Below the pieces are notes generated by a model. The model saw nothing but the letters and a program-made list of their open reading frames with translations, searched no databases and was not told the origin of the DNA. The position numbers and the translations under genes are program-made. A DNA stretch of 64,000 nucleotides from Gammaproteobacteria bacterium (GTDB taxonomy: Bacteria; Pseudomonadota; Gammaproteobacteria; UBA4575). The stretch spans positions 480,001-544,000 of the forward strand of contig CBDEUS010000002.1 of NCBI GenBank assembly GCA_965243395.1. Reading direction: 5' to 3'. Shown one piece after another: positions 20,399-63,341 of this stretch (position 1 is its first letter; each line of letters starts with the position of its first letter).

Positions 20399-20449
20399 AT
20401 TGGTGGGCCCGGTAGGACTCGAACCTACGACCAAAGGATTATGAGTCCT
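20399..20449 (-). repeat. att site: duplicated 3' part of the tRNA(CAT) gene
   Basis: 51 bp identical to 63263-63313; diverges after the anticodon stem. Confidence 0.95.
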
Positions 20450-20559: not shown

Positions 20560-21858
20560 TTGAACATGAGTTTAAAAATGGTGGCCCTGAGGGTGGATAG
20601 CAGATCCGGGGATTTTTCTGTTCGGACCGCTTCCAACAAAATATATCTCTCCAAAGCGAATCTTAAAAAAATTCCCTTACCTGAAAAAGGTACCCAACGG
20701 ATTTGGGATACCGAACAACCGGGTTTGTTTGTGCAACTTTCCTCAACCGGAAACGCGGTCGCCTACTATCGCTATCGATTGAATACACGTCAGCGTGATT
20801 ATCGTATCGGACGCGTCTCGCATTTGAGTATGAAATCGATTCGTGAAGCGGTACGCAAAGCGGCAGCGAAAGTCGAATTGGGTCGCGATCCGCAACAAGA
20901 ACGTAAAGAGGAAAAGAAACAACAACTCGAAGCCTTACGTCAACAAGAGAAAGACACGCACTCCACTTTGGGAAACTTTTATTACAACTATTATATTGAT
21001 TATGCCAAGGCGCATTTAAAAGACTACGAAGCACGTTTGCATTCGATCGAATTTAATTTTCAACAATGGTTCGAATGGCCGATGGAAGAACTCACTCCTG
21101 CGGTAGTGAGTCAATGGCGCAATCAAAAAATGAATACACCTGTGATCCGAGGTAAAGGAGCTAATCGAACGGAACATCCGAGAAAACCGGGTGGTGTGAA
21201 TCGACCGATTGCCTATCTTCGTGCTCTACTCACCGTTGCATTTGAAGAAGTCGAGATCATCGACAAACATCCGTTGGCAAAATTCAAACCTTTAAAAGAA
21301 CCCAAAAATCCTCGCAAACGTTTTTTACGTGAAGACGAGTACATTCGCCTGCGCAATACCTTGCGGGAACGCGAAGACTATCTCCCGGTGTTCATCGAAC
21401 TCGGAATTCATACCGGACTTCGCATGAATGAAATGCTGACACTGACTTGGGAGAATGTGAACTTTCAAGAGAAGTGTCTCATCGTGGAATCACAATATGC
21501 CAAGAGCAAACGTCAGCGAACGGTACCGTTGAATGACACCATCATCGCAATGTTGCGTGAATGGAAATTTAAGATTCAACGCTTCGGACCGTGGGTGTTC
21601 ACCAATCCTGAAACCGGTAACCACTATGTTTCGATTAAACGGGCTTGGGTTGCTGCGATGAAGGAAGCCAATATTGAAGACTTTGTGCGTCAGGATTTAC
21701 GGCGCACCTTTGGTAGTTGGTTAGCTGAACGTGGAGAAAGTATTTTTGTCATTAAAAATTTGCTTGGTCATAGCACCGTACAAGTCACCGAAGGGCATTA
21801 CGCATATCTACAAGATGATTCACAACGCCAAGCGGTGAAACGACTCGAAAATAAATAG
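20560..21858 (+). CDS. tyrosine recombinase/integrase with Arm-DNA-binding N-terminus
   Basis: WDTEQPGL.V...YRL...R..RIG arm domain; HTGLR..E, QDLRRTFGSWL, LLGHS...T..HY catalytic motifs (Q in place of the usual H in HxxR). Confidence 0.92.
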   Translation: MNMSLKMVALRVDSRSGDFSVRTASNKIYLSKANLKKIPLPEKGTQRIWDTEQPGLFVQLSSTGNAVAYYRYRLNTRQRDYRIGRVSHLSMKSIREAVRKAAAKVELGRDPQQERKEEKKQQLEALRQQEKDTHSTLGNFYYNYYIDYAKAHLKDYEARLHSIEFNFQQWFEWPMEELTPAVVSQWRNQKMNTPVIRGKGANRTEHPRKPGGVNRPIAYLRALLTVAFEEVEIIDKHPLAKFKPLKEPKNPRKRFLREDEYIRLRNTLREREDYLPVFIELGIHTGLRMNEMLTLTWENVNFQEKCLIVESQYAKSKRQRTVPLNDTIIAMLREWKFKIQRFGPWVFTNPETGNHYVSIKRAWVAAMKEANIEDFVRQDLRRTFGSWLAERGESIFVIKNLLGHSTVQVTEGHYAYLQDDSQRQAVKRLENK

Positions 21859-40610: not shown

Positions 40611-40637
40611 CCAATCCTTTAAGCAATGATACAAGGA
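40611..40637 (+). repeat. 27-bp direct repeat, copy 1
   Basis: CCAATCCTTTAAGCAATGATACAAGGA, 26/27 identical to 52518-52544. Confidence 0.85.
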
Positions 40638-40818
40638 ACACCGCTCCTAGGTGCATATAAAAATATGAGACTAGAATAAATGAGTTAGGGCTTGATACTT
40701 TCTAATTAGAATAATTTCCACTGATACATCCACCCTATATCGGTCATCAAGATCGGTATTCATCACAATAAAATATATTTTGTGAGAAGAGAACTACCAA
40801 TTTCTTTAATATTTACCA

Positions 40819-40921
40819 ATTTTCCGCTATTGACCGAAAGGAGACAAAAAATGGGACTCAGTTGATTGGATTTAAATAAATACAAGTTCAAAATGTCTGC
40901 TTACGACCCAAAGCGGACATT
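40819..40921 (+). repeat. two 30-bp palindromic sites flanking a conserved 43-bp spacer
   Basis: ATTTTCCGCT-ATTGACCGAA-AGGAGACAAA and AATGTCTGCT-TACGACCCAA-AGCGGACATT. Confidence 0.85.
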
Positions 40922-42231: not shown

Positions 42232-42261
42232 TATGTCCGTTATTGGCCGTAAGCAGACATT
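42232..42261 (+). repeat. 30-bp palindromic site
   Basis: TATGTCCGTT-ATTGGCCGTA-AGCAGACATT. Confidence 0.85.
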
Positions 42262-42349
42262 AACGACACAATTCGTGTATGGAAAACAGTGCAAGCAGTA
42301 ATTGTGATATTCCAAAGCATCACACCTATGATGCTCCAAACCGAAAGTA

Positions 42350-43246
42350 TTAGATTTCTTCTAATAACCATTCTTGAAAACATTTAATTTTCTTGCGATG
42401 AGCATAGGATTCAGGATATACAAGTGTATATCTTCCACCAAGAGGAATTTTTTGTTGATAGGGTGCAACTAAACGATTAGTCGTAAGATCCTCGTCAGAC
42501 AAACTTATTCGACCCAGTACAATTCCAGCTCCATCTATTGCAGACTGCACGGCATGGTCCGGTTCACTAAAATGTGGCCCTAAATCAAAATTAATATCTG
42601 TATAACCTGATTGTTCAAACCAATATTGCCATCCTGGTTTACCTAAAAACGTCTCAATGGAATCATCATGTATAAGGGTAAAACTTTTAAGATCTTCAAT
42701 TTTTTCAAGCTTACCTTTTTCTTTTATTAATAATGGGCTACACATAGGTGTTATATGTTCTTCAAAAAGCTCAATTTTTTTCAGGCCTGGATAGTCATCG
42801 GGACTGAATCGAATTGCCGCATCAACGGACTCCCGGTGAAAGTCTACAATTCTGAGGCTTGATGAAATATGAAGATTGATATTTGAATATGCGGAATTGA
42901 ATTTTTCTAACCTAGGACTAAGCCACTTTGCGGTAAACATTGGCGCGGCACTTATACTTAGTTCTTCTCTACCTTCATCTCCTACAATTTGTTCAATCGC
43001 TTGATCAAGCTGTAAAAAACCATCACTTAATCTTGGCAATAATCTTTTAGCGGTATCAGTGAGGAATAATTTATTAGGTTGTCGCTCAAATAATTGAGCA
43101 TCTAAATATTCTTCTAGGGTTTTAATCTGTTGGCTAATTGCACCAGGGGTGACATGCAGTTCTTCAGCAGCTTTAACAAAACTTAAATGTCTAGCCGCGG
43201 CCTCAAATGAACGTAAAGCGGTAAGTGGATAGTTGCGTCTAGTCAT
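42350..43246 (-). CDS. LysR-family regulator (GcvA-like)
   Basis: PLTALRSFEAAARHLSFVKAAEELHVTPGAISQQIK.LE; start placed at MTRRN. Confidence 0.92.
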   Translation of the reverse strand: MTRRNYPLTALRSFEAAARHLSFVKAAEELHVTPGAISQQIKTLEEYLDAQLFERQPNKLFLTDTAKRLLPRLSDGFLQLDQAIEQIVGDEGREELSISAAPMFTAKWLSPRLEKFNSAYSNINLHISSSLRIVDFHRESVDAAIRFSPDDYPGLKKIELFEEHITPMCSPLLIKEKGKLEKIEDLKSFTLIHDDSIETFLGKPGWQYWFEQSGYTDINFDLGPHFSEPDHAVQSAIDGAGIVLGRISLSDEDLTTNRLVAPYQQKIPLGGRYTLVYPESYAHRKKIKCFQEWLLEEI

Positions 43247-43361
43247 AAAAACCCGCCCTATATTTTCTAAACCAGGCTTAAGAATTACTCGTTTGCTGGG
43301 AAGCAAGACTGTAATTATCGTTTTACCTTCAATTTATCACAACTATTAAGGAGAAAGGGCT

Positions 43362-43808
43362 ATGCCTATTATTGATATTGAAATCCCGCAAGGGGCGTTA
43401 AAAGACAATGTAAAACACCAACTACCTGAAAAATTAGGCCGTATTGCCATTGAATATGAAGGGTTAAGCGGCAGTCGATTTGCACAAGAGTTTACTTGGT
43501 TATACATCCATGAGTTACCGGTAACTCATGTAGCGCAAGTATCTGGAGAGCTGCCTAAGCCAATTTATCGGGTCACCTTTACTACTTTAGAAACACTTTT
43601 AGACGATGAACGTAAACACATGCTTGGTGTTGATGTTGCCAAAGCTATTTACGAAGCAGAAGGCTCAAAGTGGAATCCCGAGGAAGCCCATAACCGGGTT
43701 TGGACATTTTTTAATGATGTCAGACAAGGTGACTGGATTGCTGGCTCACTCATCAACAACATTCCAGATCTTCAAAAAAGAGTGGAAAAAGAGCGAGCGG
43801 CTGCCTAG
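43362..43808 (+). CDS. tautomerase-family protein
   Basis: N-terminal Pro (MPIIDIEIPQGAL), two beta-alpha-beta repeats; divergent from the LysR gene. Confidence 0.75.
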   Translation: MPIIDIEIPQGALKDNVKHQLPEKLGRIAIEYEGLSGSRFAQEFTWLYIHELPVTHVAQVSGELPKPIYRVTFTTLETLLDDERKHMLGVDVAKAIYEAEGSKWNPEEAHNRVWTFFNDVRQGDWIAGSLINNIPDLQKRVEKERAAA

Positions 43809-43893
43809 GTATTTGAAATTTATTAGTAATGAATAAGTGCATCCCATTATTTATGGGATGCACTTTAAAAGAAGATTAATGCAGGAGATTACA

Positions 43894-44502
43894 ATGCAAA
43901 ATTTAAACAAAGGTGTTTTTTCTAAAAACCCTAACTATAACGAATCAACAATGCGCAAAGAGTTCGCCCAGCTAATGCCTTTGCGAACGATCGTTATCTA
44001 TTGTTACGACCCACGTGCAACCGGTATTCCATCTGCGGTGGCACAAGAGTTTGGAGATGTATATCCCGGGGAAACAGTGTTTGATGAGGAAGGTAATGGG
44101 ATTGCTACTACATGCTCATTATTAAATGTAATTGTGGCGGGCGGGCGGGCGATTGATGCGCTTCGCTCCATAACTGTTGGGCAACACTTGTTAGGAGTGG
44201 AGAACATTGTTGTCGTTCATCATACCGATTGTGGTGCTACGTCATATACAGCGGATGGAATCGTCGAAGCTTTTAAACATGAGCATAATGTTGATATATC
44301 GAACTTATATGACCAAGCTAGTGTTTGCATTACTGATTTTGAATCTTCGCTCAATCATGACGTTCAATTAATTCGTAACTCAGTTGGCACACCGCCACAT
44401 GTAAATATCTATGGCTATGTCTATGACATAGACACATATGAATTAACCAAAATCACTGAAGATTTATCTTCCAATACATTTCAAGCATCAGCGGTTCAAT
44501 AG
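43894..44502 (+). CDS. beta-class carbonic anhydrase / COS hydrolase-like protein
   Basis: CYDPR, AGGR, VHHTDCG Zn ligands, GYVYDI; start placed after the AGGAG RBS. Confidence 0.8.
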   Translation: MQNLNKGVFSKNPNYNESTMRKEFAQLMPLRTIVIYCYDPRATGIPSAVAQEFGDVYPGETVFDEEGNGIATTCSLLNVIVAGGRAIDALRSITVGQHLLGVENIVVVHHTDCGATSYTADGIVEAFKHEHNVDISNLYDQASVCITDFESSLNHDVQLIRNSVGTPPHVNIYGYVYDIDTYELTKITEDLSSNTFQASAVQ

Positions 44503-44514
44503 AAGGTAAATATT

Positions 44515-45060
44515 ATGAGTAATTTCAGTTATTCAAAAAAATTCCTAGGGGTAGGGGATGTTTTCTTACGCTCCCCTGATTATTACAAACCTTTACTCGA
44601 CTTTTTGGAAAACGTAATGGTCAGTGAATCGGAACTAACAAAAGCAGAACGGGAAATCATCGCATCGCATGTATCTAATATTAATGGATGCACATTTTGC
44701 TTGAATGCGCATCGAGCCACGCTAGAAGCAATGAATGTGAGTAATGAAACAATATCCACACTTGAGAATGGGATAGAAATAAAGGGTATCCGTGATGAGT
44801 TGCGACAATTAATCGTATTTGCAGATAAATTAACACGAACACCTGAAAGCATATCAATTACTGACATTGATGCTCTTAAAGAAGTAGGTATTTCAGAACA
44901 GACTATTGAAGATACGATAAATGTTGTGTCGATCTTTAATTATGTAAATCGATTGACAGATTCATTTGGCGTGAAGGGTAACCCTCTATATTTCAAGCAA
45001 GTGGGCACGTCACTTGTAAAATATGGTTATGCGCATTTGCTGAATAAAAAGGCGGCCTAA
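44515..45060 (+). CDS. AhpD/CMD-family peroxidase-related protein
   Basis: EREIIA..VS..NGCTFCLNAH motif. Confidence 0.85.
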   Translation: MSNFSYSKKFLGVGDVFLRSPDYYKPLLDFLENVMVSESELTKAEREIIASHVSNINGCTFCLNAHRATLEAMNVSNETISTLENGIEIKGIRDELRQLIVFADKLTRTPESISITDIDALKEVGISEQTIEDTINVVSIFNYVNRLTDSFGVKGNPLYFKQVGTSLVKYGYAHLLNKKAA

Positions 45061-45078
45061 TTCTTAGGAGACCAGCAA

Positions 45079-45225
45079 ATGAATAAGTTTTATAAAGGAA
45101 TTGCTTCACTAGTAATTTTAGTGATTATCATTCTACAAATCGTCTATGTTATGCAAGATGAACATATAAGTAATGATAATCAAAAAAATTATGCGTTAGA
45201 AAGATTTCCAGACATTCATCCTTGA
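45079..45225 (+). CDS. small single-TM protein (48 aa), not in the ORF track
   Basis: AGGAG RBS; MNKFYKGIASLVILVIIILQIVYVMQ... Confidence 0.5.
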   Translation: MNKFYKGIASLVILVIIILQIVYVMQDEHISNDNQKNYALERFPDIHP

Positions 45226-45244
45226 TTAGTGAGAGTTCTTTAAA

Positions 45245-45637
45245 ATGAACGACAAACTCGCATGGAACATTAAGGGAGAAACGTTTGAGGATGGAAGTAA
45301 TCTATCGGATTGGGAAAAGTTTTACCAAAGCCCGGAATGGCATTGGCAATATGATACTCATGAGATGACATTTGGAATTTATAAACATTCAGGGCAATTT
45401 TGGAAGCTTTATCTTGGGCGATATGTTCTCCCAGGTGAAACTGATTATACATACGATTACGGTGGTGTTGCTTGTCGCATGATGCTGGTTAAATATCGTA
45501 GTAAAGCTCGTTCACCACATTCTTCTATGCTCAAAGAAAAGGGCGAGGAAGAATGGATACGCACTAACGAATACGATCCTATCATTCACTCAATCTTAAA
45601 AGAGGGAGAAACCTCAGTTGAATATGATGAAAAATAA
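45245..45637 (+). CDS. hypothetical protein
   Basis: 130-aa aromatic-rich ORF. Confidence 0.6.
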   Translation: MNDKLAWNIKGETFEDGSNLSDWEKFYQSPEWHWQYDTHEMTFGIYKHSGQFWKLYLGRYVLPGETDYTYDYGGVACRMMLVKYRSKARSPHSSMLKEKGEEEWIRTNEYDPIIHSILKEGETSVEYDEK

Positions 45638-45860
45638 TGTAGAACAGAAAGAGCCTGAAGAAATTACATTATGGCAAGCTGTGAAGAGTGTGTTGGCTTC
45701 ATTTATTGGAATTCAAAATAAAAAGAATATGGAGCGCGATGCTCAATCAGATAAAAACATTCCCATATTCCTCGCAGTAGGTTTTATACTCGCAATCCTG
45801 CTCCATGTAATAATTTACATAGCCGTAAAAATAATTCTTTGGCAATCAGGGATTTCCTAA
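45618..45860 (+). CDS. DUF2970-like small membrane protein
   Basis: WQAVKSVLASFIGIQ..KN.ERD followed by a TM helix. Confidence 0.75.
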   Translation: MNMMKNNVEQKEPEEITLWQAVKSVLASFIGIQNKKNMERDAQSDKNIPIFLAVGFILAILLHVIIYIAVKIILWQSGIS

Positions 45861-45889
45861 AATATTGAACATCGAATATATTTAATAAA

Positions 45890-45992
45890 CTTGTCCGCTA
45901 TTGGCCGGAAGCAGACAAATTATAGGATGAGTCAGGTTGGAATCAATGAACTACAAACTTAAAATGTTCGTTTTAAGTCAATTGCGGACATT
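45890..45992 (+). repeat. two 30-bp palindromic sites (second degenerate) flanking a 43-bp spacer
   Basis: CTTGTCCGCT-ATTGGCCGGA-AGCAGACAAA and AATGTTCGTT-TTAAGTCAAT-TGCGGACATT. Confidence 0.8.
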
Positions 45993-46079
45993 GTTAAACT
46001 ACGCTCTGCAGACATGTATTCATCATATTAAGCATCTACTTTGTGTGACGAGGACTACCAATCCTCTTAGCTTTATTCA

Positions 46080-46109
46080 ATTGTCTGCTTTCTGCCAATT
46101 GTGAACATT
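46080..46109 (-). repeat. degenerate 30-bp palindromic site, opposite orientation
   Basis: ATTGTCTGCT-TTCTGCCAAT-TGTGAACATT. Confidence 0.65.
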
Positions 46110-52517: not shown

Positions 52518-52544
52518 CCAATCCTTTAATCAATGATACAAGGA
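52518..52544 (+). repeat. 27-bp direct repeat, copy 2
   Basis: CCAATCCTTTAATCAATGATACAAGGA. Confidence 0.85.
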
Positions 52545-52667
52545 CTACACCTCCGCGGGTCGTCTCAAGGAATGAATTTAGGTTAAGTGCGTTACGACAA
52601 CGTCCTTGTATGCAAATAATATGTCCACCGGATCTTCCACGTATATCAAAGTGATTGAGTGTTGTTT

Positions 52668-55447: not shown

Positions 55448-56167
55448 TTAATGTTCCCACATGGTTCGCTTCTTGCCTTTTTCTTCTTTAATCTTGGCCC
55501 CTGTTAGTTGACTCCATAAGTTGACTCCCACCATTACTTCAATATGAGTGGTCGGTACTTGGAATTTATCTAAAGATTTAGTTGATGATTTATGTGGCAT
55601 GACAAAGGACCACATATGAAGCGCCCCGCTTTTTCTTTCTGCTAACACAGATTTAAAAAATGCATGAGGGACAGGGAGTTTAATGGGACTATCATCAGTC
55701 GTTTGAATGGTTTCAATTACGAGATCGAAATCAAAGATTGGTCCGCTGATAACATACACTTCGTATACGTCATCCAGGTCATTTAATTTTCTTACGGCAT
55801 TTTCAAGTCGCTTCCACACACCATTATTAAAACCCTGTTCTTGTGGGCACATATTAGAAAGCAAAAACGTTTCACTGTCTTGTAAAACCTCTTCATTCTG
55901 ATTCGCACTGGCTACAAGATGGCCTCGCGAGAAACCGGAACCTACATATTGTGCTTTATCCACTCGAAATAATTCTGGGATACGAAAGTCCGATCTAAAA
56001 TTTTCAGAACGTTCAACGTCTATCGTACCTCTATCCACTATTTCTAATGCCCATTTAGCTTGTCGATAGTAATAGGAGTACCCGACGATATAGTGTCTGT
56101 TAATTAGAATCTGGTCTGCCGCCGGCATTCCATAGCGAGTTTCAGCCCATTGACTAGGATCAAACAT
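55448..56167 (-). CDS. DNA/RNA non-specific endonuclease (NucA/EndoG-like)
   Basis: SGFSRGHL, TFLLSNMCPQ..GFN.GVW.RLE, VISGPIF. Confidence 0.9.
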   Translation of the reverse strand: MFDPSQWAETRYGMPAADQILINRHYIVGYSYYYRQAKWALEIVDRGTIDVERSENFRSDFRIPELFRVDKAQYVGSGFSRGHLVASANQNEEVLQDSETFLLSNMCPQEQGFNNGVWKRLENAVRKLNDLDDVYEVYVISGPIFDFDLVIETIQTTDDSPIKLPVPHAFFKSVLAERKSGALHMWSFVMPHKSSTKSLDKFQVPTTHIEVMVGVNLWSQLTGAKIKEEKGKKRTMWEH

Positions 56168-56359
56168 AAATTCCTCCTAATACTTGAATGTCCGCTTTCG
56201 GCCAATAGCCGTTTTTTTACACTGTCGAATATTTTATAAATCTACAAACGTAGGAATTATCACTATGAATGGTAATTCGTAGTAACTCTATTTCACAATA
56301 TAAAATAACAATTTTGGGTACAATAACATTTAATTTTATTTACATGGATGTAAATCTAA

Positions 56360-56740
56360 ATGAAAAAACTATTACTACTAATACTGTTATTACCAAGTAT
56401 TGGATTAACAGCTAATAATGGATCTGGGAATAAGTTATTAGAGCAATGTAGCTATGCGGATGCATTGATTCATGGCAAAAAGATAAATGCTGATTTAGGT
56501 GAAGATTATGCGTTTCTTTGTCTTGGCTACGTTTCAGGTGTCTATGACGCATTATTTATGAGCAATCAAGTATGTGGCCCTAATGTAGCAGATTGGAACC
56601 AAGCTAGAATAGTTTATAACTATTTAATCGAAAATTCCGAGATACTTCATTTTGATCGACATGTTCTCACCAAAATTGCATTAAAAAAAGCATATTCTTG
56701 TAACAGCAGTCAGACTGAATATTTATCTAGCACTGACTAG
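56360..56740 (+). CDS. Rap1a/Tai-like immunity protein
   Basis: signal peptide, GNKLLEQC, CLGYVSGV.D, VC.P......Q...V..YL, AL..AY.C. Confidence 0.8.
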   Translation: MKKLLLLILLLPSIGLTANNGSGNKLLEQCSYADALIHGKKINADLGEDYAFLCLGYVSGVYDALFMSNQVCGPNVADWNQARIVYNYLIENSEILHFDRHVLTKIALKKAYSCNSSQTEYLSSTD

Positions 56741-56774
56741 AAAAAGTCTGCTTTCGGCCAATAGCGGACAAAAA

Positions 56775-57431
56775 TTATTGTATATAGTTATTAAAAACTA
56801 CAAATATTAAACTCGCTTTTTTCAATTTTGTAACTTCATATTTATTCCCATCATGAACGGCAATCAGCGCATGCAACCCCGCTTCACTAATCCTAATATC
56901 ATGTTTGTATATTCCTTCTACACCAAAATCAATTTCACCTAAAAGTGTGCAGGGCTCGCTAAAATATGCAAGCATGATGAAATTCTCTTCATCATCTTCA
57001 AGACCTCCAGATAGAAACATATCTTTTCCAGCATCGTAACCAAAAGTGCTCAATCTTAAGTATTTAGTACTTGCTGGCTCAATATTTAACCCTTTGTTAT
57101 ATTCGCTCTCAATATTCGCGGCAGAATAACCCACAATCTCTGAACCAAATCTCTTAAGATCAATACTTGGTTTAGACTCTAGACTCATATCAATCATCCA
57201 ATATTTGTCTTTCAAGGGTGCACCATAAAGTGAACCTGGAATAATACCCAACTCAAGAAAAAGAGTATCTGGTGTATCAAAGTTATCTGAAACAACTTTT
57301 GTTTGTTTAAGCTTTAAATGGACTAATTTTGATGAATCTGAATTTTGATTTGCTGAAAAACCTAATAGCGAAATTAGTACTAAAATCGCCGTCATCCATC
57401 CAATCAATATTGATATTTTCTTATTCAACAT
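56775..57431 (-). CDS. hypothetical exported protein (cassette)
   Basis: 218 aa, N-terminal TM/signal; fills the interval between two sites. Confidence 0.7.
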   Translation of the reverse strand: MLNKKISILIGWMTAILVLISLLGFSANQNSDSSKLVHLKLKQTKVVSDNFDTPDTLFLELGIIPGSLYGAPLKDKYWMIDMSLESKPSIDLKRFGSEIVGYSAANIESEYNKGLNIEPASTKYLRLSTFGYDAGKDMFLSGGLEDDEENFIMLAYFSEPCTLLGEIDFGVEGIYKHDIRISEAGLHALIAVHDGNKYEVTKLKKASLIFVVFNNYIQ

Positions 57432-57478
57432 TTTTGTAATTTAAATGTCCGCTTTGGGTCGTTAGTAGTCATTTTATA

Positions 57479-57760
57479 CTAGTATTTTTTATTGCAGTTC
57501 CAACAATTCTTATTCGGCAAGCGAAAATCAAATATATTATTACTTCTCCAAATTTGCTTTTTGCCACAGTCATCACATTTCAATGTGAACATATAATAAA
57601 CAAAATATAAGCTATAGATTATTGTTACATAATAGTGCCACCCTATTTCTCCAAGCCAATTTTCATAGTTTGAAATAGGTTTTTGTAACACCCTATGTAT
57701 CACAACAAGTATTACGAGAACAGAAAGTAGAAATAAGAATTTTGTTCTATGACTGAACAT
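57479..57760 (-). CDS. two-TM protein with C-terminal Zn ribbon (cassette)
   Basis: CDDC and CWNC motifs. Confidence 0.65.
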   Translation of the reverse strand: MFSHRTKFLFLLSVLVILVVIHRVLQKPISNYENWLGEIGWHYYVTIIYSLYFVYYMFTLKCDDCGKKQIWRSNNIFDFRLPNKNCWNCNKKY

Positions 57761-57848
57761 GAATAATTTTTGTCCGCTTTGGGTCGATAGCAGTCATTTA
57801 GTATTTATATTTTTTGTACATTATACATTTATCTTTATAGCTACTCTC

Positions 57849-58495
57849 TTATTTTGTGCTTTGAATTAACTTACTAACTAAAACACCAAGCACTCCAATA
57901 ATGTAAAAGGCAATTGGAATAATTAGCCAGCCATACCATGTGCTTAATAGGTTTGATAAATAAGATCCAATTATACTTTGTGGTGCAAGTTTTATAGAAA
58001 TTAATCCAACAAGCATGATAACAACTACAAGGATAGCTACAGTAACATCACCACCTGTTACTTTCTGCACAGAGGCGTGCTGTGGATTTATCTTTTTTAA
58101 TCTACGCTTTATATACTGACCTATTAAATAAACTAGCCCACAAATGCCTAGTAATATAATCCCAGCAATTAAAAGTGCTATGCCCGCTCCCACATCACGC
58201 TTCTTGGAGATGTATATAATATTATTTTTTTCTCTAACTGATAAATTGTTCTCTTCAGCTATCTTATAAATTGCTTCCTTCCAAGGCATGCACTCAAAAT
58301 TAATGGGTACTGATTTATTTATGGATGAGTCCATTTTTATTTCAATCACAGCAAAATCTGCTAATAAAGCGTAAGCTGATTTTAATTTTAAATTTTGAAA
58401 ACTAAATCGAAGTCTCCGTCATCACAATTAGCCCACGCCAAGGAACTTACAAAAAATGTAAGAAAAATTAAAATAAAAAGTCTATTGCTTCTCAA
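57849..58495 (-). pseudogene. probable frameshifted gene: signal peptide + secretin-N (STN)-like domain + TM region
   Basis: upstream frame (L/M)RSNRLFILIFLTFFVSSLAWANC..FDLVF stops near 58390; a 1-nt shift continues QNLKLKSAYALLADFA into ORF 57849-58349. Confidence 0.5.
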
Positions 58496-58530
58496 TATAA
58501 TTAATCTGTTTTCGGCCAATAGCGGTCATA

Positions 58531-59088
58531 TTAAAATTCTTTTTCTTTTAGATAACCAGATGGACAATGTTTGTCTTCAATACGTGTATCACAAACATAA
58601 ACAGTCCTAAACTTATCAACCCATTTGTTCAATTCTGTAGCAGATACATTTTTTTGCCAAATTTTAAGTAGATGATAAGTACTATCTTTTCCTTTTATGG
58701 CTAGATTTAAAATTTGAGCTTTTGAATTGTCCTCTTTTAAGCAAACTGTACGCCAAAGCAAAGACTTATAATTTTGGTTATCTATTGGGTCTAATTCTAT
58801 AGATTCAAAAGATTTACATGCTTTTTTGCCCGGCTTATCTTGCTCTTTTCTCATTTTTGAAGGTTTTTTATTAGACCCATATCTAATATTTACTGCATAA
58901 GCATCTCGCATACCGCTTTCTTTACTACGCCATAGCATACTTCTAAATTTTCCTTCTTTCTTTGTAAGGATTTCCCATTTTTCAGAGCTTAATTCATAGG
59001 GGACAATTAAATTCTCACCTTCGTAAAATTCTGATGAATATACATTTGTAAAAATCCCAATCAATAAAATGAGTATTACTAATTTCAT
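58531..59088 (-). CDS. hypothetical exported protein (cassette)
   Basis: signal peptide, four Cys, C-terminal VCDTR....CP; stop abuts the site at 58501-58530. Confidence 0.75.
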   Translation of the reverse strand: MKLVILILLIGIFTNVYSSEFYEGENLIVPYELSSEKWEILTKKEGKFRSMLWRSKESGMRDAYAVNIRYGSNKKPSKMRKEQDKPGKKACKSFESIELDPIDNQNYKSLLWRTVCLKEDNSKAQILNLAIKGKDSTYHLLKIWQKNVSATELNKWVDKFRTVYVCDTRIEDKHCPSGYLKEKEF

Positions 59089-59169
59089 AATGCCGCCTTC
59101 GATGAATAAATTTAGTAGAACGGATAACTATCTTATAATGTCCGCTTTGGGTCGTTAGCAGACATTAAA

Positions 59170-59592
59170 TTACCACGGCCCTCTTAAACTTATATCAACA
59201 CCGTCTCCCGATGGTGTCATTTTAATTGTATACGCCACTTTTCTGCCATCAGTCCTTTCTACAACCCATGCTTCGGTTATCGATGTTGAATCTTTTGTCA
59301 ATAAGCGTGTTTCAATTACTTTACCAGTGGATTGCCCCTCGCTTGATTCAGCTTGTTTAATTAGATTTTCTATATCTTTCTTTAAGGTGGCATCAGCTAC
59401 AGTTGGAGATTCAGTACCAAGCAGGTATTTTTCCATTGCCACCGAACCACCACCAATATCTTTAGATGACCATCTATAAGGTGATCCATCTTGTTCTAAT
59501 TTTTTGTTTAAATCATTTACGGCATTATGGACTGAGGTATTTGCACAACCAAAGAATGTAAACATTGTTAAAAGTATTAATAGTAATTTCAT
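59170..59592 (-). CDS. lipoprotein (cassette)
   Basis: GAGGTG RBS, MKLLLILL..FFGC lipobox; the track's longer start lies inside the repeat. Confidence 0.75.
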   Translation of the reverse strand: MKLLLILLTMFTFFGCANTSVHNAVNDLNKKLEQDGSPYRWSSKDIGGGSVAMEKYLLGTESPTVADATLKKDIENLIKQAESSEGQSTGKVIETRLLTKDSTSITEAWVVERTDGRKVAYTIKMTPSGDGVDISLRGPW

Positions 59593-59633
59593 AAGCACCT
59601 CAATTAAATAAGCTCTCTTTCGGCCATTAGCGG

Positions 59634-59975
59634 TCATTTCTTAATATGAAAGTTAAAAGTATATCTTGCACGAAGTACAACTTTCTCAGAGTCATAAGAA
59701 TATTCTGATAGCTCAATTACGACCGTGTCCTTTCCGATATAATTGTTCATTGGTTTATATCTGAATATGTGTTCATAGGTTTTTTTATTCCAAATAATTT
59801 CACTTATTTCAGAGTTTTGTGCTTGTTTAACAATTTCGAGCGCTTGCTCATCACCAATACTGCCAAGATTTTTCTCATAGGTTTGATTAATATTCAAATT
59901 AATCTCAACTTTAGGTGCGCACCCAAAAAAAGAAACTAGAGTAAAAATTAATACTATTAGTAAGTATTTTTGCAC
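59634..59975 (-). CDS. lipoprotein (cassette)
   Basis: GTG start VQKYLLIVLIFTLVSFFGC lipobox; TGA stop supplied by the repeat arm. Confidence 0.65.
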   Translation of the reverse strand: MQKYLLIVLIFTLVSFFGCAPKVEINLNINQTYEKNLGSIGDEQALEIVKQAQNSEISEIIWNKKTYEHIFRYKPMNNYIGKDTVVIELSEYSYDSEKVVLRARYTFNFHIKK

Positions 59976-60100
59976 AACTGAAAATGCCCACTTTGGGTCG
60001 TTATTGGACATTTTTTTCTTGTATGTAATTGATTCCAACCTACTACTTCTCATTTTATGACTGCTTTCGGCAAATAGCGGACATATTAGGAATGTAATAT

Positions 60101-60397
60101 TCAATCAGCATTATAATCTTGCGGATATGGATTAGGCTTTTGGATTTTATCGCTGTAAATCCAAGAACGCATTAGTTTTGGGATAGCACTCGTGTGCAAA
60201 ACTGATTCACTTTCTTGATAAGAAAATCTCAGTGCTATAGCAAATCCAAGTACTGGCAGTATCCATATAATAAATATTCTAAGTATCTTAACTGGTGTTG
60301 AAATATTTTCTTCGAGTAGAGTAATTAAAGAAGCAATTAAATTAAAATAAACTATGAATAATATGATACAAATGGATACGATTATAAAAATGTCCAT
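60101..60397 (-). CDS. two-TM membrane protein (cassette)
   Basis: K......IWILPVLG motif after two hydrophobic helices. Confidence 0.65.
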   Translation of the reverse strand: MDIFIIVSICIILFIVYFNLIASLITLLEENISTPVKILRIFIIWILPVLGFAIALRFSYQESESVLHTSAIPKLMRSWIYSDKIQKPNPYPQDYNAD

Positions 60398-60500
60398 TAA
60401 GTTTTCACCTATTTACTTAATCTTTGTACACTTATCATCTATATGTTCTTAATATGATGTCTGCTTTCGGCCAATAGGGGACATTCATCATCCTAACTCA

Positions 60501-60962
60501 TCATGCAGTTGATCTTTCAGCAAACTCTCTAAATCGATTCATAAATGTGAGCGTCTGTTTTTTGAATACACTAGGCATGAAAATGCTCATAAGCTTGACG
60601 ACAATTCCTGAGCATTTGTATTCAGCGTTGAGAACCCACCTAGTTTTATTATTATCAACTTTGAAAAAATGGTTCTCAATGAGATTCCAAATGCCATCTG
60701 CTTCATAGGTTGCAGAAAATTCGTTGGGGTAATTGTGGGTTTTAATGGTCTCAATCATTTCGATTTCTCGTCCACCCATCTTATGAATTTGTTTTGATTG
60801 TGATCCTACCTGACGGGATTCGCCACTTATTTGTTCAAAGTTTATAAGGTCTGGCTGCCATTTGGCTAGATTATTTGGATCTAGAAATAATTCGATGACG
60901 CGCTCTCTCGGCAGTTTGATTTCGATTTCAACTTCATAACTTTTGGAGGTTTCTATTGCCAA
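60501..60962 (-). CDS. SRPBCC/START-family protein (cassette)
   Basis: EIEIKLPRERVIELF.DP.NL.KWQ, FKKQT..FM..F..FAE. Confidence 0.8.
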   Translation of the reverse strand: MAIETSKSYEVEIEIKLPRERVIELFLDPNNLAKWQPDLINFEQISGESRQVGSQSKQIHKMGGREIEMIETIKTHNYPNEFSATYEADGIWNLIENHFFKVDNNKTRWVLNAEYKCSGIVVKLMSIFMPSVFKKQTLTFMNRFREFAERSTA

Positions 60963-61001
60963 TTAATTGTCTCCTTTCGGCCAATAGCGGACATTTGAAA
61001 A

Positions 61002-61403
61002 TTATGAGTGATCAAAAATCTCGATGTCACCATTTTCAAATATAGCTATTATAATTTTATCTCTAATTCCACTTGTAACCCCGACATGAAATTGTAAGTA
61101 AATAACCCTACCTCCTAATTCTTCATAACCACCTTCATAGGATAATTGAATACCGTTATGATAAGCACTTGGGATTTCATTTAAAATTATTTGAGGTATT
61201 TCGATTGTTTTACCAAATGCTCGTACAGTAATTTCTGAAAACAATCGTTTGGTATCTTTCTTTGCCTTAACGACAACAGGGCCTGATTCATCAATCGCTT
61301 CAGAGAATATATGAATGCTAGTAAACGGTAGTACGCCTTCTCGTGAAGAGTATGTGGCTGACATTATTAGATACAAAATCAGGAAAACCATTACTTTTCT
61401 CAT
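61002..61403 (-). CDS. hypothetical exported protein (cassette)
   Basis: AAGGA RBS, signal peptide. Confidence 0.7.
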   Translation of the reverse strand: MRKVMVFLILYLIMSATYSSREGVLPFTSIHIFSEAIDESGPVVVKAKKDTKRLFSEITVRAFGKTIEIPQIILNEIPSAYHNGIQLSYEGGYEELGGRVIYLQFHVGVTSGIRDKIIIAIFENGDIEIFDHS

Positions 61404-61472
61404 AACCTATCCTTAAATATATCTAGTGAAAAAAGAATATTGAAATGTCCGCTTTGGGTCGTTAGCAGTCAT

Positions 61473-62048
61473 TCAATCGCTATTTATACTATCTCTCCAC
61501 TTCCATGGAGGGATTGGGTCTTCTGTTTTCCATAGTCCTACTTTTTTTGACTTCGCCCAGTATTCTTTACTATTTAAATCTTTCTGCCTTTCTTTTGGTA
61601 ACTGCTTGTAAAATCTTCGCATTACCCATGCATGACCGCATACGACCATTTTTGCATTTACATTTACCCATTCATTATCTGATTCACTTTGTACATATAT
61701 AGTTGCCAACATTCGCTCATATTTATCATAACCATGTGACTCTATTCGAATATGACGACCACCAATTAATCGAATCAGGCCATATTTAGCATTGTCACCC
61801 CAAGGCTGACCATCTTCTGGGCAATCGATTGCGTATAGCCTTACTTTAGACTTACTCCATTCATCACCTACGATAATTGTATCTCCATCAATTACATGAT
61901 GGACTTTTTTTGTCTCGTAGCTTTTTTTATTTGATATTAGTTCTTTATCTTCATCTGATTTTGGTTTTTTATCTTTATCAGACTTGAGGCTAGTTATTAT
62001 GACTAGAGCAATTAAAAATACTACAAATAAAAGTATTCCTAATTCCAT
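61473..62048 (-). CDS. thermonuclease (SNase-like) with N-terminal TM (cassette)
   Basis: VIDGDTI, VRLYAIDCPE..QPWG, DKYER.LA, AK.KKVGLW....P.PPWKWR. Confidence 0.9.
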   Translation of the reverse strand: MELGILLFVVFLIALVIITSLKSDKDKKPKSDEDKELISNKKSYETKKVHHVIDGDTIIVGDEWSKSKVRLYAIDCPEDGQPWGDNAKYGLIRLIGGRHIRIESHGYDKYERMLATIYVQSESDNEWVNVNAKMVVCGHAWVMRRFYKQLPKERQKDLNSKEYWAKSKKVGLWKTEDPIPPWKWRDSINSD

Positions 62049-62154
62049 TTTTTTAGCTTACATTTGTTTAGAGAAATATGTCGTTTTGAACCATTAGTGG
62101 ACATTTATGAATTAATGGGATTGTGCTGTTGTCATTCGGTGATTTCGTCGATAC

Positions 62155-62517
62155 TCATTTACCGTCACCACATCTGCCCCATTCTCTATAAACTTTTCCA
62201 TTCTTTGGTGAAATAAAAGCAACATCAAATAAGTTTTGTGAGTTAGAAACAATCACACAACCATGTAACACACCAACTTTCCCGTAATAGTCTCCATCAA
62301 AGTCTGATTTTAGAAATACTATTGCTGCATCATTTTGACCTACACCAGCAATTTCAATTAACAGACTCTTTCCAACTTCGTATGAACAGTGTTTTGTTTG
62401 ACTACTATCCTCATGACATTCTTTACCAGAAATCACAGCACTAAATGTTTTTTCTTCACCAAAACATGGTGCCGAAAATAAAATTAAAATGATAAATATA
62501 AATTTATAAATTTTCAT
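62155..62517 (-). CDS. hypothetical exported protein (cassette)
   Basis: signal peptide, Cys-containing 120-aa ORF. Confidence 0.7.
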   Translation of the reverse strand: MKIYKFIFIILILFSAPCFGEEKTFSAVISGKECHEDSSQTKHCSYEVGKSLLIEIAGVGQNDAAIVFLKSDFDGDYYGKVGVLHGCVIVSNSQNLFDVAFISPKNGKVYREWGRCGDGK

Positions 62518-62572
62518 TGATTTAGTCCATTTTAATTAAAGATAATTAATGTCCGCTTTCGGCCATTAGCGG

Positions 62573-63103
62573 TCATTCTGTGGAAGACACTAATTCACTA
62601 CAATCCATCACCTCTTTTGCAACGATTTGTGTTGGTGAGGTTGTTCGCTCAACGACTAAGGCAGGCTTCTCTTCTTTGCTATTAATTATAAATACACGAT
62701 ACGTATGCCCTGGATTAGCATTTAAATTAACATCGGCATTACAACTCAACGTTATCTGCTTATACTCTGGTTCAGAAAAACCGCCACCTAATTTAGCTAT
62801 TATGCAAAAAGGTAAAAGAATTAAACACCGAAGTTCAGGATTTTTTCGATCTTTATGCTTTATTTTATCTGAATTTGGTTCTACTTCTATTTGATGAATT
62901 ACATTTCCATTAAAGGAAATCTCAAAGTTTCCAGACTTTGATTGATAAGACTTGTTTTTATTAAAAGGCTTATCATTAATACTGACATTTTCCACCTGGA
63001 CATTAATTGTTGATTCTTTAAATAATTTACCTTTTAAGCTAGGCCCTGATGACGTTGAACATCCTGATATAAAAATTAGAGTTGTGATAACAAAAATTTT
63101 CAA
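62573..63103 (-). CDS. lipoprotein (first, tRNA-proximal cassette)
   Basis: ISGC lipobox; TGA stop lies within the repeat arm. Confidence 0.7.
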   Translation of the reverse strand: MKIFVITTLIFISGCSTSSGPSLKGKLFKESTINVQVENVSINDKPFNKNKSYQSKSGNFEISFNGNVIHQIEVEPNSDKIKHKDRKNPELRCLILLPFCIIAKLGGGFSEPEYKQITLSCNADVNLNANPGHTYRVFIINSKEEKPALVVERTTSPTQIVAKEVMDCSELVSSTE

Positions 63104-63264
63104 AATTTGAAACTTAATTATGTCCGCTTTGGGTCGTTAGCGGACATTCGAGCACACATAATATATACGGTCAAAATAGATAGAACATTTGGTGGAAGGA
63201 TGGTGGAAAATAATTCCAAGGAGATATCAAAGAAACCGGATAATTAGTAACTAGTTGATTTTAT

Positions 63265-63341
63265 TGGTGGGCCCGGTAGGACTCGAACCTACGACCAAAG
63301 GATTATGAGTCCTCTGCTCTAACCAACTGAGCTACAGGCCC
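63265..63341 (-). tRNA. tRNA with CAT anticodon, probably tRNA-Ile2 (lysidine)
   Basis: GGGCCTGTAGCTCAGTTGGTTAGAGCAGAGGACTCATAATCCTTTGGTCGTAGGTTCGAGTCCTACCGGGCCCACCA; position after rpoD as for E. coli ileX. Confidence 0.92.

Follow-up and report, generated by a model that had tools for sequence, protein, structure and literature searches.

Integrons, which are defined by their integrase, are the textbook example of the stockpiling and shuffling of single genes. Other systems also arrange accessory genes around short sites. In the pdif modules of Acinetobacter plasmids and in dif-integrating elements, accessory genes are bounded by arm-core-arm sites and served by host recombinases in trans, the pdif sites alternating in inverted orientation. 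The dRS3 mosaic elements and minimal mobile elements of Neisseria contain variable units that lie between short conserved palindromes and are exchanged between conserved flanks, and the rAID-1 loci of Bacteroidales are arrays of immunity genes with conserved intergenic repeats and a tyrosine recombinase of their own. Here we analyze an array of 30-bp palindromes alternating with small genes at positions 56187-63148 of a 64,000-nt stretch (the window) of a gammaproteobacterial genome. The window is C2:480001-544000 of genome G000 (2.58 Mb, 38% GC, two contigs, C1 and C2, 100% complete); other G numbers denote the genomes compared with it. We tentatively propose, with somewhat less than even confidence, that the palindromes are the boundaries of single-gene cassettes and the places of cassette exchange, brought about by a factor that is not encoded beside them.

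The arrays resemble integrons and clusters of attC sites lacking integron integrases (CALINs) in being composed of single, mostly small open reading frames (ORFs) of one polarity, each with a palindromic site and most without known function; in the turnover of their content between species at fixed chromosomal positions; and in a composite site of two halves with a variable spacer. They differ in the absence of IntI, in the many arrays per genome, in a composite that is two hairpins, and in a GTT string that lies on the strand opposite to the genes. Further, attC sites are conserved in structure and variable in sequence, whereas the 30-bp near-perfect palindromes studied here are conserved in sequence. 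With repetitive extragenic palindromes (REP) and bacterial interspersed mosaic elements (BIME) the sites share their short extragenic form, their tens to hundreds of copies, the ordered mosaics of types with common arms, and a possible role as recombination anchors. They differ from these in having no REP-associated tyrosine transposase (RAYT) with flanking sites in the site-rich genomes searched, in clustering in accessory arrays, and in being conserved across classes. The Xer-dependent modules likewise have short arm-core-arm sites and a recombinase not encoded beside the units, but the palindrome is unlike the dif site of this genome and its copies are directly oriented. Unlike the Neisseria elements, the units are whole genes and the 30-bp repeat is common to several classes. 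The rAID-1 loci are similar as arrays of small genes, which here include one of the Rap1a immunity type, but no recombinase is encoded in the array.

Palindromes and genes of the window array

A scan for the two arms with a free 10-nt core and at most three mismatches, compared with 100 shuffles, produced 10 matches in the window against none expected, seven of them within the array. A looser scan with two 30-mer consensus forms and at most eight mismatches yielded 14 co-oriented sites there, and one more, whose left arm contains a one-base indel, was identified by eye. All 15 palindromes have a single orientation and carry one of two loop types, which on the plus strand read TTGGGTCGTT (v0) and TTCGGCCAAT (v1). 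The successive start-to-start distances are 556, 701, 325, 732, 636, 472, 374, 73, 400, 510, 478, 632, 472, and 571 bp. One main ORF is present in 13 of the 14 intervals, on the minus strand in 12 cases and on the plus strand in one (56360-56740). The preliminary description of this DNA, which had listed 15 directly oriented palindromes with two core variants, spaced by 325-732 bp except for one interval of 73 bp, and one gene per interval with 12 of 13 in the same direction, agrees in all these points with our scans, the measured distances, and the ORF list.

Two of its other statements stand only in part. Gene starts were said to be often 3-20 bp from the upstream site. This is fair for four of the 12 minus-strand ORFs, where the distance is 3-15 nt (start and site at 60962/60966, 57760/57769, 57431/57444, and 63103/63119), but is not general, the other eight starts lying at 27-151 nt. 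Among the protein labels, Rap1a, SNase, and SRPBCC were recovered by Pfam, whereas the remaining 10 of the 13 array ORFs have no Pfam match; the same holds for 15 of 20 proteins searched from two arrays. Genes and sites are in places interlocked: some sites contain the stop codon of the preceding gene or the ribosome-binding site of the following one. For instance, the second arm of site 11, read on the gene strand, has the form of a ribosome-binding site 3 nt ahead of the next start codon.

Distribution and structure of the site family

The G000 genome contains 88 sites with at most seven mismatches, against none in shuffled contigs, and these form about 14 arrays. For 84 of the 88, another site is found within 4 kb; when sites were placed at random in 1000 trials, this was so for 21 of them on average and for 38 at most. 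Adjacent sites are co-oriented in 65 pairs and not in four. To count polarity, the longest ORF was taken from each of 53 site-to-site intervals of 150-2500 bp. It is opposite to the written orientation of the sites in 49 intervals and on the same strand in one; the other three intervals are bounded by oppositely oriented sites, so that 49 of the 50 co-oriented intervals share ORF polarity. The ORF usually covers 85-99% of its interval. Opposite polarity also prevails in the loci of related genomes (64 versus 10) and, among the matches listed, in metagenome contigs of low (52 versus 12) and high (41 versus 13) GC content. The cassette-like layout of the preliminary description, with one ORF per interval, fixed polarity, and tight packing, is thus confirmed: as in integrons, the unit is one ORF with one site, the units are co-oriented, and their content varies between relatives.

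The site family is widespread. When its spread was counted by a 16-nt core with at most one mismatch, each of the 14 other species of the genus had between 3 and 196 matches, and at least 10 matches were present in genomes of five further genera of the family (G015, G019, G021, G022, and G024) and in one genome of another family (G038). Five genera of the family with small genomes have no match or one, and the reversed pattern, used as a control, has 0-2 matches. Among the matches listed, complete 30-mers occur in Alphaproteobacteria, Caulobacteraceae, Sphingomonas, Woeseiaceae, Polynucleobacter, Pseudomonas, Nitrospina, and others, and two alphaproteobacterial genomes have 56 and 71 core matches. 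An exact 25-mer of the site was found in at least 120 metagenome contigs with 32-65% GC, which indicates that its sequence was held constant while the surrounding DNA drifted to the composition of the host. The preliminary description had missed this reach of the family over several proteobacterial classes. A 16-mer scan of a genome collection was diluted by chance matches in Collinsella. The plasmid collection contains seven single imperfect matches, two of them in annotated contexts (after vapBC and before fos) that offered no lead, and the search of the phage collection for the site gave no match. A literature search by sequence strings and keywords found no description of the element; subscription journals and supplementary files lay outside this search, and an earlier description is possible.

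These data bear on a strong rival explanation, the main one, by which the palindromes are REP- or BIME-like elements with a host function, such as protection of mRNA 3' ends, insulation, or binding of nucleoid or topoisomerase proteins, and the cassettes are exchanged by general homologous recombination or gene conversion. We regard it as possible, though doubtful. Short intergenic palindromes in many copies, up to 196 core matches per genome, are what it predicts. Dispersal after many transcription units including core ones, which is a REP/BIME trait, is not observed, since 84 of the 88 sites lie in arrays of small accessory ORFs; here the genome scan with the 30-mer, proposed in the preliminary description, was decided in favor of clusters rather than REP-like scatter after core genes. 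Nor does homology alone explain near-identical 30-mers across classes and from 32 to 65% GC.

The arrangement of the two loop types speaks for a REP/BIME-like element. A frequent layout is v0 followed 73 bp later by v1, with a conserved 43-nt spacer between them, and this 103-bp composite recurs in G000 and in nine of the 14 other genomes of the genus (G001-G005, G007, G009, G012, and G013). Five composites stand in a row at C1:232.7-236 kb of G000, and about 16 are present in one array of G012. Among the close pairs listed from the set of at least 120 metagenome contigs, 57 of 63 are v0-v1, six are v0-v0, and none is v1-v0. The commonest pair spacings in the metagenome matches listed are 83-84, 47, 101-104, and 162-163 bp, spacings of 91-92 and 57-59 bp being present as well, and in the GC-rich contigs listed the spacer carries a third hairpin, whose arms are the same but whose loop differs. 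Hence the site picture of the preliminary description was right about the two variants but missed a family of hairpins in ordered mosaics (v0, spacer or third hairpin, v1) that recalls REP and BIME.

At the level of the single site the likeness to REP is weaker. Each site can form a 10-bp stem with a 10-nt loop (for the gene strand of site 6, folded as single-stranded DNA, -6.6 kcal/mol). In 278 distinct sites, however, the pair 7/24 is of the Watson-Crick type in 116 cases, the same number (116) as chance predicts, and the pair 5/26 is a T.T mismatch in 65; thus the arms do not co-vary, and hairpin pairing as such seems to be weakly selected. No terminator-like site (GC-rich stem and T run) was found in a 3.6-kb array with 12 sites, five of them in composites, and an Rfam 15 search at the sites gave nothing at E<=1. 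We also noticed that 11 bases of the v0 core (for example, at 59147-59160 of the window) equal the first 11 of the Escherichia coli tRNA-Lys as printed in papers, probably by chance. Finally, an ATG frame opens in the site when it is read on the gene strand, and spurious starts of small ORFs appear there in the ORF lists of GC-rich loci. The palindrome explains a class of spurious small ORFs that start inside it; similar peptides may also be present in alphaproteobacterial annotations.

The cassette-like organization, the two-part composite with a variable spacer, and one mapped junction between G and TT of the GTTAGC string in the v0 core would be expected if the sites were unusual attC sites in CALINs, moved by an IntI from elsewhere or in the past. 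The v0 string matches five of the seven positions of the integron core GTTRRRY (PMC8876359), whereas the v1 core lacks GTT, and the core string is on the strand opposite to the genes. An attC-like long hairpin is not the favored fold of the composite: as single-stranded DNA, either strand of the 103-nt sequence folds into two separate hairpins (about -14 kcal/mol, with a z of about -4). The best G000 matches to the IntI family (TIGR02249) reach 83 bits where the cut-off is 265, and XerD and XerC are the two best loci. IntI exceeds the cut-off in two of 25 genomes of the family, in neither of which a site lies within 18-20 kb of intI, and one of the two, G014, has only three core matches. Conversely, IntI is absent from all but one of the 14 other species of the genus, yet 12 of the 13 without it carry 29-196 core matches. 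The claim that no IntI is present therefore holds at the family cut-off, the claim that the sites are not attC is supported by core sequence and fold, and the attC explanation, one of the less likely, retains only the slightest probability.

Another of the less likely readings is that the palindrome is an operator for a dimeric regulator, conserved for regulation, with all cassettes forming one regulon. A 30-bp near-palindrome near start codons would suit such a role, and the composites contain a weak pair of -35- and -10-like boxes that ends at the first v0 bases on the gene strand. A promoter in the composite spacer was considered and rejected, as only one of five composites reached the threshold of the promoter scan and the region has fewer promoter-like sites than its shuffles. 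Sites are also located after genes and at duplication junctions, and an operator would not normally be expected in up to about 200 copies per genome and in several classes. We consider this reading very improbable.

Cassette turnover and candidate exchange factors

At three loci, arrays have been inserted or deleted between conserved core genes, and their content is species-specific. At the locus of the window array, the rpoD/tRNA flank is conserved, with 78-91% identity, in 12 of the other 14 congeneric species, and the content of the array recurs there in none of the 14. The closest relative has no sites at this locus; in G001, a site matching site 15 adjoins the same tRNA. In G012, a 16-kb array of about 25 cassettes separates the tRNA-fMet/rimP side from nuoN; in G000 the distance between these flanks is 58 bp. 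The gap after xerC-hslVU-orf148 contains 1-5 detected sites in G000, G001, G011, G012, G019, and G022, and is about 100 bp long and free of sites in G015, G017, and G023. The locus at C2:997.7-999.6 kb is empty in G001 and G003; only a pair of a second repeat, described below, is present in G014; one hairpin or v0 with the spacer stands beside this second repeat in G008 and G006; and 1-3 or more cassettes are present in G011, G005, G000, and G012.

Homologous cassettes were found in other neighborhoods, as the preliminary description had anticipated, and some are identical up to a point in or at the sites. Window cassettes have diverged homologs in other arrays, among unrelated neighbors. For instance, the lipoprotein cassette has a homolog with 72% identity in another array of G004, with the same type of 3' site, and the homology begins exactly at this site; a homolog of the SNase cassette (76%) is located elsewhere in G011 and has a decayed 3' site. 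G019 has two copies of one cassette, 1.8 Mb apart and in unrelated surroundings, that agree at all 443 interior bases. In their upstream sites, five differences fall in one arm and its inner two bases; from the core onward the two sites share every base, even one that departs from the consensus. This places the junction at the core/arm boundary, after GGGTCG in the plus-strand reading. In a second pair (884 nt, 100% identical) the change is inside the upstream site, and in a third pair the whole upstream site is kept.

Six upstream and five downstream junctions were informative. The upstream break is inside the site in three cases, at its first base in one, and 3 or 19 nt beyond it in two. Downstream, the identity ends within one base of the outer edge of the site in all five cases, which is weak evidence, the shared stretch being consensus sequence. 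Across 304 family sites, mutual information ties the left-arm position 7 and position 19 to the loop type and the right arm not, a pattern that fits a crossover near 19|20. In metagenome sites, neither the low-GC nor the high-GC set links the loop type to the right arm; a link to position 7 exists in the low-GC set only, and one to position 20 in the high-GC set. As a whole, the linkage data are compatible with a fixed crossover but do not prove it.

In the mechanism that we propose, a cassette would be one ORF of fixed polarity with a site or with an ordered v0-spacer-v1 mosaic. The palindrome would serve as a simple arm-core-arm site, of about 12-6-12, for a sequence-specific protein acting in trans. 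Strand exchange near the core/arm boundary would lead to excision, insertion, or replacement of gene-plus-site units, and arrays of cassettes would build up at several hot spots between core genes and in islands. We infer such a site and protein because the sequence is nearly constant across host compositions and the polarity and the order of the mosaics are fixed, none of which general homology would need. That a dedicated recombinase, rather than general homologous recombination, does the exchange is conjectured, as are its identity and the place where it would cut; the geometry of the site would suit a tyrosine recombinase.

Five tyrosine recombinases are encoded in G000: a canonical XerD next to dsbC, a canonical XerC in the DUF484-xerC-hslVU locus, and three P4-type integrases. 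In G007, a 91% complete genome with 30 core matches, only two Xer-like tyrosine recombinase genes were found at E<=1e-10, and the site-bearing genomes examined share no tyrosine recombinase other than XerC and XerD. The dif site of G000, at C1:959290 by the GC-skew maximum, has no arm sequence in common with the palindrome, in agreement with the preliminary description. Its suggestion that the island integrase of the window could serve the sites was not supported: the system is not tied to the island, with 88 sites in about 14 arrays over the genome, arrays lie between core genes with no recombinase nearby, and in G007 the only tyrosine recombinases found are the XerC- and XerD-like ones. The interpretation given there is, overall, partly supported. 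No serine recombinase, IS110 transposase (PF02371), rve domain, reverse transcriptase, or Rpn-type nuclease was found in G000. An IS110 assignment considered for a neighboring 373-aa ORF was rejected, this ORF having no Pfam match and PF02371 being absent from the genome.

The Y1/RAYT family (PF01797) was not found in G000, G019, G042, G043, and G044, and the RAYT copy of G041 (Woeseiaceae) is not flanked by the palindrome hairpins. These observations deprive a REP/BIME-like element of its defining transposase. They also count against a third reading, in which the cassettes are IS200/IS605-type units with hairpin ends, v0 upstream and v1 downstream on the gene strand, moved in single-stranded form by a Y1 transposase that acts in trans or has been lost. 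Many arrays do have v0 before and v1 after a gene, units are separated by short conserved spacers, and two duplicated blocks contain the whole flanking hairpin. Nevertheless, single sites of either type stand between genes in many arrays, and one junction falls inside the core of a site; this less likely reading we judge improbable. Having no integron integrase or repeat transposase in the genome, the system looks like an undescribed means of storing and swapping accessory genes.

Several results weigh against exchange at the palindromes by a specific protein. No recombinase was found beside any examined array. A screen of 130 loci with the three P4-type integrases, its queries not including Xer or IntI, matched none of 427 ORFs that were 180 aa or longer, and Pfam detected no recombinase in 10 representatives of the commonest families and 28 neighbors in G000. 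The enzymes at hand in G000 are only XerC, XerD, and the three P4-type integrases, and its dif is unrelated to the palindrome. The junctions are not uniform, the identity spanning the whole upstream site in three of six cases, and in one 97%-identical pair the upstream sites have different core types. The linkage boundary at 19|20 was replicated only partly on independent metagenome sites, in the high-GC set of which the loop type is unlinked to the left arm too. A shared-half-site test on 26 homologous pairs, including pairs in the same context, gave no decision, and the ordered multi-hairpin mosaics have the look of REP and BIME. A REP/BIME-like element would account for the absence of a recombinase beside the arrays, and the variable positions of the junctions in or beside sites fit double crossovers in flanking repeats. 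Sequence reads do not shift the balance. The array is present in one sample only (four runs, X2-X5), runs X6-X8 with the same organism label matched the tRNA only, and the site-to-site joints in X2 have sides of 20-32 letters that come from the repeat itself and give no evidence for or against excision.

Our preferred reading remains that the palindromes bound single-gene cassettes and are the places of their exchange. Its wider form is possible but doubtful: a cassette system independent of the integron integrase and widespread in Proteobacteria, in which single genes would be taken up, kept, and swapped at many hot spots of the chromosome, served either by a conserved enzyme of the host or by a recombinase that has escaped recognition and whose gene never lies beside the arrays. 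The outcome is integron-like in the absence of an integrase, with many arrays built of one-gene units, a rapid turnover from species to species, and identical units at different loci. If a specific protein acts on the site, this would be a second, broadly distributed cassette system; if none does, it would be a clear case of a REP-like repeat that organizes accessory genes into exchangeable modules. Either way, the palindrome is a simple marker for hot spots of accessory genes in uncultured Proteobacteria.

Coordinates, island, and neighboring repeats

The sites and genes of the array and related features are listed in Table 1.

Table 1. Coordinates of palindromes, cassette genes, and related features (window positions unless a contig is given)
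Feature	Position	Strand	Evidence or remark
Site 1, v1, right arm decayed	56187..56216	+	4 mismatches to v1 consensus
Site 2, v1	56743..56772	+	consensus scan
Site 3, v0	57444..57473	+	arm scan and consensus scan
Site 4, v0	57769..57798	+	consensus scan
Site 5, v1, left arm decayed	58501..58530	+	8 mismatches
Site 6, v0	59137..59166	+	both scans
Site 7, v1, left arm decayed	59609..59638	+	7 mismatches
Composite: v0 59983-60012, 43-nt conserved spacer, v1 60056-60085	59983..60085	+	consensus scan
Site 10, v1	60456..60485	+	both scans
Site 11, v1	60966..60995	+	both scans
Site 12, v0	61444..61473	+	both scans
Site 13, degenerate, one-base indel in left arm	62076..62105	+	read by eye
Site 14, v1	62548..62577	+	both scans
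Site 15, v0, last before the tRNA	63119..63148	+	both scans
Endonuclease_NS gene flanking the array	55448..56167	-	Pfam
Rap1a-like ORF, sole cassette of opposite direction	56360..56740	+	ORF list, Pfam
Four cassette ORFs	56775-57431, 57479-57760, 57849-58349, 58531-59088	-	no Pfam match
Lipoprotein-like cassette	59170..59637	-	ORF list; homolog in G004
Two cassette ORFs	59634-59975, 60101-60397	-	no Pfam match
SRPBCC (Polyketide_cyc2) cassette	60501..60962	-	Pfam
Cassette ORF	61002..61403	-	no Pfam match
SNase cassette	61473..62048	-	Pfam
Two cassette ORFs	62155-62517, 62573-63103	-	no Pfam match
tRNA, CAT anticodon, attachment site of the island	63265..63341	-	
51-bp repeat of 63263-63313 (3' half of the tRNA), far end of the island	20399..20449	+	perfect match
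P4-type island integrase, 432 aa; action on the palindromes a candidate only	20560..21858	+	
Second composite in the island: v0 at 40892, v1 at 40819	40819..40921	-	
Four further sites of the family in 42232..46109	42232, 45890, 45963, 46080	-, -, +, +	
Second repeat family, G000	C1:28580, 30496, 281094, 282284, 423476; C2:247761, 275890, 997753, 999595, 1047030; about 15 more		

The window array forms one end of a 42.9-kb island between perfect 51-bp direct repeats (20399-20449 and 63263-63313), the integrase being located at the other end. A 77-nt direct repeat with 71% identity is also present inside the island, at 40611-40687 and 52518-52594, 11.9 kb apart. At the inner end of the array (55448-56740), an Endonuclease_NS gene stands beside a divergently placed gene of the Rap1a immunity-like type, and in G011 a homolog of the Endonuclease_NS gene has a site abutting its 3' end.

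One array lies 2-4 kb downstream of xerC-hslV-hslU (C2:245-253 kb in G000) in six genomes of three genera; its closeness to xerC may be due to chance or shared descent. The second repeat family consists of 2-4 short hairpins with GGA in the loops, often as inverted pairs at both ends of an array. At one locus it occurs alone in relatives, as an empty platform. It has no Rfam match, and its GGA loop motif recalls the binding sites of CsrA-type regulators.

A short hairpin repeat of about 50-70 bp is found at C1:878359, 893529, 898692, 902052, and 905287 of G000, and directly abuts three v1 sites (those at C1 878359, 893529, and 902052). A group II intron was considered for it and rejected, as Rfam detects no intron and the repeat is too short. 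Finally, a tandem repeat with a 318-bp period extends to both contig ends in opposite orientation (C1:1272667-1279027 and C2:1292331-1299009); it probably represents one long repetitive gene and is probably the reason why the genome was assembled in two pieces.

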